Below, one piece after another: positions 21,274 through 26,097 of a stretch of 64,000 bases of DNA; the stretch's first letter is position 1; the number at the start of each line of letters is the position of its first letter. The DNA is taken from assembly GCA_016180855.1 (NCBI GenBank), contig JACPAL010000002.1, forward strand, positions 245,788 to 309,787. The letters run 5' to 3'. Origin of the DNA: Deltaproteobacteria bacterium. GTDB lineage: Bacteria; UBA10199; JACPAL01. Position numbers and translations under genes: made by a program. Under the pieces are notes generated by a model. The model was not told the origin of the DNA. It worked only from the letters and a program-made list of their open reading frames with translations, and did no database searches.

Positions 21274-21861
21274 ATGCCGCTGGATGATTCACGTGCCCCC
21301 TTTAAAGAAGAAGAGCGGGGCAAGGTATTGGACCCTAATCCGGAGCGACGCCGGTACCTTGTCGATCTCTTTTATAAATTTGCACAAAACAGGATTTCTC
21401 TTGCCGATCTATCGCGTTTCCCCCGTAAAAAATTGGTCCGGGTCGCAGAGATCGGTTACTTCAAATACAAGTACGGGCGTTATGAGGAGGCCAAGAAGAT
21501 TTTTGAAACGCTCGTCGCGATCGACCATGCGAATCATTACTATCACACAGCCCTCGGGGGCGTTTATCAGAAGCTGGGGCGGTATGTTGATGCGGTGGTG
21601 GAATATACGCGGGCGCACCGTTTAAGACCCAAGGATCTCTGCTCCTACGTCAACCGGGGAGAGATTTATCTCAAACACAAAAACTTCAGAAAAGCGGCCG
21701 AGGATTTCAGGGCCGCCATTCAGCTTGATCCCGACGGGAAAAATCTCTGGGCGAATCGGGCACGGTCGCTCGTTATTGCACTCAAACGGAATCTGGAACT
21801 GAGACAGAGGTTACAGAGAAGGCCGGCTTCTAGGGAGAATCCGGCTCGTCCTCGCCAATAA
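21274..21861 (+). CDS. second class II T3S chaperone of the LcrH/SycD family (TPR)
   Basis: YFKYKYGRYEEAKKIFETLVAIDHANHYYHTALGGVYQKLGRYVDAVVEYTRAHRLRPKD has the same TPR pattern as SycD and the chaperone at 19799. Confidence 0.75.
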   Translation: MPLDDSRAPFKEEERGKVLDPNPERRRYLVDLFYKFAQNRISLADLSRFPRKKLVRVAEIGYFKYKYGRYEEAKKIFETLVAIDHANHYYHTALGGVYQKLGRYVDAVVEYTRAHRLRPKDLCSYVNRGEIYLKHKNFRKAAEDFRAAIQLDPDGKNLWANRARSLVIALKRNLELRQRLQRRPASRENPARPRQ

Positions 21862-23236
21862 TCCCATACTTCTTGAGCAGATTACGAATATGCTTTCGGT
21901 CGATGCCCGCCTCGCGCGCTGTCTTTGAGATATTGTAATTGTTTCTTCGAAGCATCGCGGCGAGGTAATCTTTTTCGAAAACCTCGACGACCTTTTGTTT
22001 TGCCTCTTTGAAGGGGAGGCCCATGTCGACCGACATCCGTTCGGTCGCCTCCTCCTCATCCTTCTCCATTTCCTGAAAAATGTAGGAGATGTTTTGACCC
22101 GTAATACTACTTCCTTCCACGAGAGGGACAATTCTTTCCAGAACGTTGATCATTTCGCGAACGTTCCCAGGCCATTGGTAACGGGTGAGCATCTTGAGGG
22201 CGTCATCTTCCACACGTGTGACTCGCAGTTTTCCATCCGGCATCTTGTTGAACTTCCCCTCTCCCAAAAATTTTTCGATCAAAAAGGGGATGTCATCCGG
22301 ACGTTCTCGGAGCGGCGGGATATGAAATTTAACAACCGAGAGGCGATAATAGAGGTCCTCCCGAAAACGCCCCTCGGAGATCTCTTTCCTTAAACTTCTG
22401 TTCGTGGCGCAAATCACCCGGACATCGATGGAGGCTGTTTCGTTGGATCCCACCTTTTTCACCTCACGTTGCTCAAGCGCCCGCAGCAGTTTTGGCTGGA
22501 GGTCAAGGGAGAGTTCGCCGATCTCATCCAAAAAGATCGTCCCCCCGTTCGCCTCTTCAAAGGCGCCGCGGCGAGTCGTGACGGCACCGGTAAACGCCCC
22601 TTTGACGTGGCCGAACAATTCGCTTTCGATAAGGTTTTGGGCGACGCTGCTGCAGTCAAAAACCACAAACGGCTTTGCCTTGCGCGCACTGTTCTGGTGA
22701 ATCGCCCGTGCGACCACCTCCTTGCCGGTTCCTGTCTCCCCTTCGATGATGACGGTTGCATTGGTGGGGGAGATCTTCTCCAGGATTCCGAAGATCTGTC
22801 TCATCTTGCGTGAGCGGCCGACCAGTAGGCCAAATTCGTTCTTGCTGGACGGCTCGATCTGGACCTTCTCATCAAAGGCGACAAATTCAATCCGGGTATT
22901 GCCGATCCGGATGATATCACCCGGCGCGAGATACGCCTCCTTCACGCGGATATCGTTGATGTAGGTTCCGTTCGTGCTGTTTAAATCCTTGAGAAGGTAG
23001 CTGTCATCCGCCTGCAGAATTTCCAGGTGATTTCGGGAAACGGTTGTGTCCTCAACCATAAACTCGTTGGTCTCTCTTTTTCCAATTCGGATGCGTGGTT
23101 GGGTGAGTGCCAGCTTTTTCCCCTTGCCTGGCCCCTCCACAATGATCAACTGACACTTCCGCTCGAAGATAAGATCTTTCTGATCTTCCTTGCCGATCAA
23201 CGCGGTATCAGTGTCGAGAACGGACTGTTTTTCCAT
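21830..23236 (-). CDS. sigma-54-dependent transcriptional activator with N-terminal FHA domain
   Basis: FHA fold (RIGKRETNEFMVEDTTVSRNHLEI...STNGTYIN) is followed by an AAA+ sigma-54 interaction domain with Walker A GETGTGKE and an intact GAFTGA loop, and then a C-terminal Fis-type HTH. Confidence 0.85.
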   Translation of the reverse strand: MEKQSVLDTDTALIGKEDQKDLIFERKCQLIIVEGPGKGKKLALTQPRIRIGKRETNEFMVEDTTVSRNHLEILQADDSYLLKDLNSTNGTYINDIRVKEAYLAPGDIIRIGNTRIEFVAFDEKVQIEPSSKNEFGLLVGRSRKMRQIFGILEKISPTNATVIIEGETGTGKEVVARAIHQNSARKAKPFVVFDCSSVAQNLIESELFGHVKGAFTGAVTTRRGAFEEANGGTIFLDEIGELSLDLQPKLLRALEQREVKKVGSNETASIDVRVICATNRSLRKEISEGRFREDLYYRLSVVKFHIPPLRERPDDIPFLIEKFLGEGKFNKMPDGKLRVTRVEDDALKMLTRYQWPGNVREMINVLERIVPLVEGSSITGQNISYIFQEMEKDEEEATERMSVDMGLPFKEAKQKVVEVFEKDYLAAMLRRNNYNISKTAREAGIDRKHIRNLLKKYGIIGEDEPDSP

Positions 23237-25702: not shown

Positions 25703-26097
25703 AGACTCATTCCCACAATAAGAAGGAGGGCGGCGATCATTGTCCCAATGACGAGGGCGTAGGTCAGAATGACACCGGCCCTCGGTCGCCCCTCTTCATC
25801 CAAGATGCCCCATACGACGAAAAACCTTTCCGTCAAAGTCAGACTTTTCTCCTCCTCCATCTCGTCTGAAGTCGAAGTTGTTTTTATTCTGAGTCTTGCC
25901 TTCCGGGTGAGCAGGGAGCTGTTCGCACTGCGCGATTCCGATGACAGGAGGCGTCGCCACCGGGAAGGTTTTTTTTCAAATTTGTCTTTTTCCTTTTTTT
26001 GTTGTTCCTGATCCTGCCTCCTTCCCTTGCGATCTCCTGAAGGATCGACACGTTGGAGGTTTGGGTCAGTCCTGTCGATAACTCTATCAATCGGCAT
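25693..26097 (-). CDS. small hypothetical protein with C-terminal TM helix, first gene of the kinase/activator operon
   Basis: ORF overlaps the kinase start by 10 nt and has an AT-rich promoter region upstream. Confidence 0.35.
   Translation of the reverse strand: MPIDRVIDRTDPNLQRVDPSGDRKGRRQDQEQQKKEKDKFEKKPSRWRRLLSSESRSANSSLLTRKARLRIKTTSTSDEMEEEKSLTLTERFFVVWGILDEEGRPRAGVILTYALVIGTMIAALLLIVGMSLWQ

Follow-up and report, generated by a model that had tools for sequence, protein, structure and literature searches.

A PEGA-domain Ser/Thr kinase and an FHA-domain sigma-54 activator encoded in one operon beside a flagellum-like type III secretion system: a candidate regulatory cascade

The window analysed here is a 64 kb stretch of DNA from an uncultured groundwater bacterium (contig JACPAL010000002.1, positions 245,788 to 309,787), in which a three-gene operon on the minus strand lies next to the genes for a system of type III secretion (T3SS). 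Exact matches put this DNA in two metagenome-assembled genomes from groundwater, GCA_016202325.1 and GCA_016187815.1. Translation of the open reading frames (ORFs) gave three minus-strand products of 134, 815 and 468 amino acids (aa) at the positions expected, and Pfam searches assigned the second and third to a Hanks-type Ser/Thr kinase and a sigma-54 activator. The genes of the operon, in order of transcription, and a promoter candidate ahead of them are:

25693–26097, minus strand: small protein, first gene of the operon, 134 aa, N-terminal part charged, C-terminal transmembrane (TM) helix
23255–25702, minus strand: Hanks-type Ser/Thr kinase, 815 aa, Pkinase plus five PEGA domains
21830–23236, minus strand: sigma-54 activator of FHA/AAA+/HTH_8 architecture (Pfam), 468 aa
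26175–26203, minus strand: candidate sigma-70-like promoter TTGATC-17-TAAAAT in the spacer between yggT and the small gene, 78 nucleotides (nt) 5′ of the first ATG

The stop codon of the small gene overlaps the ATG of the kinase gene by 10 nt, the kinase and activator genes are 18 nt apart, and no terminator-like site was seen when the minus strand within the operon was inspected. An earlier note on this DNA had described a three-gene minus-strand operon for a small membrane protein, a PEGA kinase and an FHA-AAA+-helix-turn-helix (HTH) activator, and the ORFs agreed with it exactly. The small protein, for which neither Pfam nor NCBIfam gave a match, is tail-anchored. In relatives it likewise precedes the kinase, starts with MV[DE][RK]I[DE]K and ends in a TM helix, often with an additional central domain of about 90 aa. 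The sigma-70-like candidate is weak, with three such sites in the scanned region against 2.9 expected. A sigma-54-type site at 26403–26418 (minus strand), inside yggT and about 300 nt upstream of the operon, was also considered as its promoter. This was the only perfect match to TGGCAC-N5-TTGCW in the window (about 0.06 expected per window); it was absent from all relatives at up to one mismatch, is probably a chance match, and was rejected.

The kinase domain (PF00069, 4.3e-38) covers aa 18–277 (nt 24872–25651), and the C-terminal part of the protein consists of five PEGA stretches (Pfam, 4e-61) at about aa 412–814 (nt 23261–24469). Reading of the translation located one TM helix at about aa 374–398 (nt 24509–24583) and Pro-rich spacers between the PEGA domains (PPRPP, PPPPP and a run of ten prolines), which bore out the earlier description of a membrane kinase with five PEGA domains and poly-Pro spacers. 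Across 28 orthologues the Gly-rich loop, K49, E68, H152-R-D154, D173-F-G and S199-P-E were invariant; with all Hanks catalytic residues intact, the sequence suggests a catalytically competent kinase. The activation-loop residues S184 and T186 were invariant in the same 28 proteins, as was T328, which lies in an otherwise variable juxtamembrane segment within the motif T-[RSA]-[SP]-[VILMF] (T-R-S-V in the window). A literature search on PEGA kinases returned nothing relevant.

The activator matched FHA (9e-17, aa 49–112), Sigma54_activat (PF00158, 3.9e-70), AAA_lid_14 and HTH_8 (PF02954, 7.8e-07, aa 417–457, nt 21866–21988). The FHA domain as a whole spans aa 24–124 (nt 22865–23167), the AAA+ domain with GAFTGA lies at about aa 135–395, and the modelled helices of the HTH region fall at 409–456. 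The sequences GETGTGKE, LDEIGE and GAFTGA are all present, and the Walker and GAFTGA motifs were invariant in 31 orthologues taken from the loci described below and in a second set of 46 from the databases. With these AAA+ motifs and a Fis-type HTH, the predicted protein is a bacterial enhancer-binding protein (EBP). In its FHA domain the residues G52, S67, R68, H70, S87, T88, N89 and G90 were invariant in both sets. The closest solved FHA domains were those of mycobacterial kinase partners (FhaA, GarA, OdhI, Rv1747 and EmbR), and K53 of the activator aligned with the Arg of FhaA and GarA.

An AlphaFold2 model based on the 46-sequence alignment had a mean predicted local distance difference test (pLDDT) score of 82.9, with residues 1–22 below 50. 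About 15 residues ahead of the first FHA strand lies T11 (codon 23204–23206), in a motif that reads T-[QE]-L-L in general and T-A-L-I in the window. T11 was invariant in the 31 locus-derived orthologues and conserved in at least 90% of the 46 database orthologues, and because this invariance falls where pLDDT is below 50, the motif appears to be a short linear element conserved within a disordered tail. At the equivalent place distant homologues likewise retain a Thr-containing motif (PPT[KQ]I[AS]Y or TKVIRW). In both the T11 and the T328 motifs positions +2 and +3 are hydrophobic, a preference of many FHA domains. The N-terminal tail of GarA is disordered and carries phospho-acceptor Thr residues that bind the FHA domain of the same protein, and in both GarA and OdhI it is phosphorylation of the tail that makes it bind there. 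The arrangement of tail Thr, FHA domain and effector domain in the activator suggests a GarA/OdhI-like layout.

On the other side of the activator gene lie the T3SS genes and their promoters, all on the plus strand:

1479–1494, plus strand: sigma-54 −24/−12 promoter TGGCACGAGAACTGCA, 27 nt 5′ of the ATG of the FliA-like sigma gene, the proposed direct target of the activator
1521–2357, plus strand: FliA/WhiG-like sigma factor, 278 aa, first gene of the sctI...sctT operon (TIGR02479, 1.8e-43)
2317–10709, plus strand: T3SS apparatus genes 3′ of the sigma gene, encoding SctI-like, FliG_C-like, SctL, SctN, SctO, SctP, SctQ, FliN-like, FliO, SctR, SctS and SctT proteins
16787–16802, plus strand: degenerate sigma-54-like element TGGCACCGGGCTTGAT, without the −12 GC
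16848–16876, plus strand: sigma-28-type promoter GCAACT-N15-GCCGATAA, 22 nt before the ATG at 16898, with 14 of 14 specified bases
16898–21861, plus strand: putative translocator/chaperone operon, with ORFs at 16898–18199 and 18196–19749, TPR1 at 19781–20386, an ORF at 20399–21262 and TPR2 at 21274–21861

The T3SS genes fill 1–10709, starting with the C-terminus of SctJ and two small ORFs ahead of the sigma gene, and their content predicts a non-flagellar, flagellum-like system. The product of the gene at 1521 had its best match to FliA/WhiG and not to an extracytoplasmic function (ECF) sigma factor, at 148.9 bits against a curated TIGR02479 cut-off of 189.6. In the putative translocator operon, the two LcrH/SycD-like proteins TPR1 and TPR2 scored 78.7 and 84.5 bits, both below the TIGR02552 cut-off of 104.8; TPR2 is rich in TPR repeats, with LcrH_SycD as its best NCBIfam match (5e-24, under the curated cut-off). 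Their partner ORFs had no known domain in Pfam or NCBIfam. The FliG_C-like segment of one apparatus protein (1.6e-06; 2846–3841), the FliO homologue (8530–8847) and the FliA-like sigma factor have the look of flagellar relics in a non-flagellar T3SS.

Conservation of this arrangement was assessed by a scan over one genome per species, which returned 80 loci; in 32 of these, metagenome-assembled genomes (MAGs) labelled Deltaproteobacteria, Myxococcota, ‘UBA10199-1’ and similar, the activator was 64–78% identical to that of the window. The kinase gene lay directly 5′ of the activator gene on the same strand in all 31 loci with upstream sequence, 26 of them with a gap of 2–49 nt, and the block of small protein, kinase and activator always followed yggS-proC-yggT. 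An LcrH-like gene converged on the activator gene in 29 of the 31 informative loci, and in most of these 29 TPR1 and then sctT, R, Q, P, O and N came next, all within 10 kb. The earlier note had held that consistently different neighbourhoods in relatives would speak against a link to T3SS genes. Because 29 of the 31 informative loci keep the chaperone/translocator operon, the neighbourhoods are not of that kind; the linkage was thus upheld, with two exceptions (L002 and L028) that are weighed below. A scan of metagenomes with SctN recovered mostly distant T3SSs (54–71% identity) and few orthologous loci.

The 3′ end of the activator gene overlaps the TPR2 chaperone gene by 32 nt (21830–21861). 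This overlap, to which the earlier note had drawn attention, is present in the window, but it is not itself conserved: the convergent stop-to-stop gap lay between −11 and +163 nt for 24 of 29 relatives, so that tight convergence is what has been kept.

The sigma-54 site at 1479–1494 has one mismatch to TGGCAC-N5-TTGCW and lies in the 176-nt spacer ahead of the sigma gene. Nine loci were compared at this position, namely the window, six orthologous genomes (L165–L170) found through sigma-factor homologues, and two closer metagenome loci (L081 and L082). All nine had TGGCAY-N5-NTGCA upstream of the sigma gene, at about 25–115 nt from the ATG, where about 5e-4 sites per spacer would be expected by chance on our estimate. 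As the element was conserved in nine of nine loci amid flanks that could not be aligned, it is regarded as a phylogenetically footprinted sigma-54 promoter. Control of the T3SS from this promoter had been suggested before; the promoter itself stands, while its use by this particular activator is suggested by linkage.

An imperfect dyad, GGGGTC-N4-GACCCC, was found upstream of sigma-54 promoters of both classes, those at the sigma gene and those at the translocator operon of relatives. It was scored 80–170 nt upstream of the −24 element, was centred about 100–141 nt 5′ of it, and reached at least 10/12 at 8 of 19 sigma-54 promoters, compared with 0.5% of random 90-nt windows. The best examples were 12/12 in L067 and 11/12 in L004, and sites were recorded at L067:15147, L004:19313, L020:15373, L023:15243, L029:14678, L168:9816 and L170:9813. 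A loose regular expression and whole-locus counts gave no overall enrichment, so that the signal is positional: it is the placement relative to sigma-54 promoters that is non-random. The dyad is taken as a lead to the binding site of the activator. Motif discovery with k-mers in the regions upstream of the promoters gave results that were only marginally above those from shuffled sequences. Autoregulation of the kinase operon through this dyad 5′ of the small gene was also considered and set aside as weak, with 10/12 reached in 2 of 17 loci against a background of 1.3%.

The second T3SS promoter is of a different type. The sequence GCCGATAA is the canonical −10 box of FliA/sigma-28, and it is this match that assigns the element at 16848–16876 to the sigma-28 type. 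In a sister sub-clade a strong sigma-54 promoter occupies the place equivalent to 16787. When the sctT-to-TPR1 spacer was surveyed in 25 relatives (from among L004–L030, L033 and L067), a sigma-28-type promoter (13–14 of 14 bases) was found in 13, a sigma-54 promoter (at least 15 of 17) in eight, both in none, and neither, in the stretch read, in four; the background for a sigma-54 score of at least 15 was 3.7%. Motifs of the GCAACT-N15-GCCGATAA type also occurred ahead of small T3SS genes in L165, L166 and L170. The simplest reading of this distribution is that the translocator operon is wired directly to sigma-54 in one sub-clade, and the degenerate element at 16787 may be a relic of such wiring. 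For the window, the promoter sequences imply a two-tiered output in which sigma-54 would drive the FliA-like sigma gene and this sigma factor in turn the translocator/chaperone operon. The proposal of the earlier note that the activator acts at sigma-54 promoters therefore fits the site upstream of the sigma gene but not the adjacent ‘cargo’/chaperone operon, which in the window has a sigma-28-type promoter and no good sigma-54 promoter.

Outside the close relatives, activator homologues of 44–54% identity were found in Myxococcota, Bradymonadia and Bdellovibrionota, and none of these had T3SS genes within 10 kb. In six of the distant loci (L041, L043, L046, L049, L050 and L058) a kinase gene lay directly upstream on the opposite strand; the activators of these divergent pairs were about 50–53% identical to that of the window and the kinase domains about 40–52%. 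Pfam confirmed Pkinase plus PEGA in three, from Bradymonadia and Myxococcales MAGs, where kinase and activator are divergent neighbours at L046:7007–11338, L050:3963–8295 and L058:6106–9630. That deep lineages have kept the pair, in two different arrangements, gives good grounds for seeing kinase and activator as working partners, and its occurrence without a T3SS in Myxococcota and Bradymonadia indicates that the module is older than its T3SS link. On these comparisons the association with the T3SS appears to be a lineage-specific use of an older module.

The observed gene order and its conservation, the domain content, the invariant residues and the conserved promoter are brought together in a model in which the operon would be the transmembrane Ser/Thr-phosphorylation input to a two-tier cascade for the adjacent T3SS. 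For the model as a whole, a probability of about one half is given. The five PEGA domains, on the periplasmic or extracellular side, would sense an envelope or surface cue. The kinase would then autophosphorylate on S184/T186 and on the juxtamembrane T328, sites proposed from their invariance. By analogy with PknB/GarA and PknH/EmbR, the activator FHA domain would dock on the phosphothreonine of the kinase, which would phosphorylate T11 in the tail. Binding of phospho-T11 by the FHA domain, in cis or between subunits, could switch assembly of the AAA+ ring. The active activator, at an upstream site, would remodel the sigma-54 holoenzyme at 1479, its identity being suggested by linkage, and the FliA-like sigma gene would be transcribed together with sctI–sctT. 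The FliA-like sigma factor would finally use GCAACT-N15-GCCGATAA promoters, including 16848–16876, to express the translocator/chaperone operon. We infer each protein–protein and protein–DNA contact of this cascade, as well as the direction of the switch and the identity of the signal. Of its parts, the link between sigma-54 and the T3SS and the partnership of kinase and activator are strongly supported by comparative evidence.

Several observations weigh against this model. The link between kinase and activator is drawn from gene order and motif invariance. The FHA position after G52, canonically Arg, is occupied by Lys in the window and in 90% or more of orthologues, while distant homologues have Ala or Ser there, so that phosphothreonine binding by this domain is not assured. 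T3SS clusters of relatives contain other FHA proteins, which may be the real partners of the kinase. Neither rpoN nor a gene for a PP2C phosphatase was found in the 64-kb window. The dyad is weak in the window itself (8–9/12 at best), and its consensus was derived from the same sequences that were scored. Two close relatives keep the operon of small protein, kinase and activator without an adjacent T3SS: downstream of the activator, L002 (11387–20478) has dnaJ and the trp operon, and L028 (5694–8155) has rnhB, rplS, trmD and rimM. No strong sigma-54 promoter was found within 10 kb of the distant kinase/activator pairs, and since these pairs occur without a T3SS as well, the module may have other targets.

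The alternative that survives best, although we consider it unlikely, is post-translational: the FHA partners of the kinase would be T3SS apparatus proteins, with the kinase gating assembly or secretion as PpkA does through Fha1, and the activator would be regulated otherwise or in parallel. Suitable partners exist. The relatives encode, 5′ of the 1479-type promoter, SctJ, a small protein with TPR repeats, an FHA-TM-PEGA-TPR protein (about 700 aa), a double-FHA protein on a divergent gene (about 350 aa) and SctV, and the two FHA proteins stood next to SctJ/SctV in six of six clusters. The FHA-PEGA protein, which has the order FHA-TM-PEGA-TPR-PEGA at L165:4387–6618, L166:4310–6484 and equivalent positions and possibly takes the SctD role, keeps the canonical G-R...S-R-x-H...N-G; the two-FHA protein lies at L165:961–1974 and equivalent positions. 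Distant T3SS clusters of the same type carry FHA-FliN and FHA-GAF-cyclase fusions, whose recurrence makes phosphothreonine signalling seem pervasive around this T3SS family. Against this, the kinase gene was always in an operon with the activator and not with the apparatus FHA proteins, kinase/activator pairs persist without a nearby T3SS, and in the genome of the window an unrelated ORF of 703 aa (L163:2–2110) stands where the FHA-PEGA gene would be expected. This explanation is moreover compatible with an input through the activator and does not exclude it. A specific homology between the PEGA region of the kinase and the FHA-PEGA protein of the relatives was looked for and rejected, as the similarity was generic and at the level of the domain. 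The fusions were seen in distant clusters with a FliA-like sigma gene, as an FHA-GAF-nucleotide cyclase and an FHA-FliN_C protein (L090:2414–4012 and L088:1193–2692).

A coincidental neighbourhood is less likely still. Here the operon would belong to the yggS-proC-yggT block, with a role in envelope or growth signalling, the T3SS would have been inserted beside it, and another EBP would serve its sigma-54 promoters. The constant position of the operon 3′ of yggS-proC-yggT, the housekeeping genes in place of a T3SS in L002 and L028 and the homologous Myxococcota pairs without a T3SS are all in keeping with this, as is at least one further sigma-54-like promoter in the window far from the T3SS, at 41920. 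Against this, 29 of 31 species-level genomes retain the linkage even though their activators are only 64–78% identical, and the T3SS cluster needs a sigma-54 activator, yet the annotated parts of the clusters that were read showed no second EBP gene, the sole other trace being a cut fragment at the far end of L033. Least probable is a phospho-independent FHA domain like the cytoplasmic FHA folds of YscD/SctD, serving as a constitutive protein-interaction or auto-inhibitory domain, with the kinase acting elsewhere: the substitution of the canonical Arg, in the clade and in distant homologues, and a Pfam score almost as good for Yop-YscD_cpl as for FHA would favour it, but the invariance of S67, R68, H70, S87, T88, N89 and G90, the phosphothreonine readers among the nearest solved relatives and the invariant Thr motifs with a hydrophobic +3 in both partner segments speak against it.

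The preferred model, phosphorylation input from the PEGA kinase to the FHA activator and from there to sigma-54, can be taken further. In a bolder form, which is put forward tentatively and held to be possible rather than probable, the operon would act as master switch for a flagellum-like T3SS that branched early, in a candidate phylum, with the PEGA kinase reading a surface or contact cue and a GarA-like switch of phospho-T11 and phospho-T328 acting on the sigma-54 activator. If true, FHA-class EBPs would for the first time have a defined kinase, phospho-site and set of target promoters. It would also mean that the flagellar hierarchy of sigma-54 followed by sigma-28 was inherited by a non-flagellar injectisome, with the translocator operon rewired between the two sigma factors according to lineage.

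Myxococcota and related lineages commonly have sigma-54 activators with an FHA domain. Work by Jelsbak, Givskov and Kaiser in PNAS in 2005 is said to have dealt with the FHA-domain EBPs of Myxococcus xanthus. A Ser/Thr kinase input has been proposed for that family. To our knowledge the inputs of this class have been undefined since then, and we know of no kinase, phospho-site or direct promoter that has been tied to any FHA-domain sigma-54 activator. The locus offers concrete conserved candidates for each: a kinase from the activator's own operon, a pair of invariant Thr motifs, and a footprinted sigma-54 promoter with a candidate dyad. With these in hand the proposal can be examined in vitro or in a heterologous host, and no culture of the organism is needed. 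The M. xanthus proteins share the FHA/AAA+/HTH architecture with the activator, and homologues in Myxococcota MAGs are about 45–54% identical to it; in contrast to them, the activator described here is in an operon with one PEGA kinase, has candidate promoters that can be named, and would act on a T3SS instead of fruiting-body development.

The proposed design would join features that are known separately, a kinase/FHA input in type VI secretion systems (T6SS), sigma-54 followed by an alternative sigma factor in Hrp systems, and sigma-54 followed by sigma-28 in flagella, and it has a bearing on the inheritance or rewiring of flagellar regulation by injectisomes. In Pseudomonas and Vibrio, flagellar FleQ/FlrA with sigma-54 precedes FliA (sigma-28). 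The order of sigma-54 and sigma-28 and the GCCGATAA box are alike, and the T3SS described here keeps FliO, a FliG_C-like protein and a FliA-like sigma factor; unlike a flagellar hierarchy, it is non-flagellar, has LcrH/SycD-type chaperones, and its EBP has an FHA input and not the FleQ or receiver domain. The earlier note had likened the module to Pkn5, a Hanks-type kinase in chlamydial T3S clusters. We know of no FHA-EBP partner of Pkn5, and the comparison is kept as a loose analogy only.

In the chlamydial sigma-54/CtcC regulon, sigma-54 controls T3S-related genes, including those for T3S effectors (PMC7482065), but CtcC is a two-component response-regulator EBP and not an FHA-EBP. The cascade HrpR/HrpS–sigma-54–HrpL of Pseudomonas syringae similarly runs from an EBP with sigma-54 through an alternative sigma gene to T3SS genes (PMC5263251). 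HrpR/S lack a sensory N-terminal domain, however, and HrpL is an ECF sigma factor, whereas the locus described here has an FHA-EBP with a kinase partner and a FliA/WhiG-like sigma factor co-transcribed with the apparatus. In the H1-T6SS of P. aeruginosa, PpkA-PppA-Fha1 resembles the module in that a contact-dependent secretion machine is under the control of a Hanks kinase in the membrane together with an FHA protein (PMC6213207; PMC10482370); that pathway is post-translational, belongs to a T6SS and includes a PP2C phosphatase, whereas here the FHA domain forms part of a transcription activator and the neighbourhood has no phosphatase gene. As the defining features of the Hrp and T6SS pathways are lacking, the module is not a member of either family. 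A Hanks kinase with an FHA regulator is also found in Mycobacterium tuberculosis, in PknH-EmbR and PknB/PknG-GarA (see the references in PMC6213207). There the output is a SARP domain or none, in contrast to an AAA+ sigma-54 activator, and the Thr motif is ETTS and not T-x-L-L.

The T3SS itself resembles the Myxococcales-type non-flagellar systems, including the needleless T3SS*, in its FliO and in its deltaproteobacterial/Myxococcota-like lineage (PMC3459982; PMC12403147; PMC12075869). Unlike the T3SS* of M. xanthus, which is without needle and translocon (PMC12075869), it has two LcrH/SycD-like chaperones with partner ORFs and a SctI-like gene. In relatives, the 20 kb that were read showed no secretin gene. 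A literature search on UBA10199 with T3SS gave nothing relevant, although the query was too loose to be conclusive. The window contained no T6SS genes and no RNA family from Rfam.

On its other flank the kinase operon is bordered by yggT, proC and yggS, then by prkA-yeaH-spoVR and by housekeeping genes including a trp operon. The prkA-yeaH(DUF444)-spoVR operon (28311–32865, plus strand) is 2 kb from the kinase operon and has the same position in the closest relatives; it has no relation to Hanks kinases and does not belong to the module. Within the trp operon, between trpD (end 41780) and trpC (start 47448), lie three ORFs (41962–47404). The first has a signal-peptide-like N-terminus, and 27 nt before its ATG is the sigma-54-like element TGGCATGTCTATTGCT at 41920–41935 (plus strand); the other two have no family match.

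Between sctT and the translocator operon, the window carries at 10701–16362 an opposite-strand gene for a DUF4143/AAA_14 ATPase, together with two ORFs (1027 and 401 aa) that have no family match. This gap is only about 1.5–2 kb in most relatives; L170 has AbiEii and ParE-toxin genes there, and L169 a PIN gene. Because the toxin, PIN or ATPase cargo differs between loci, the interval looks like an insertion hot spot.

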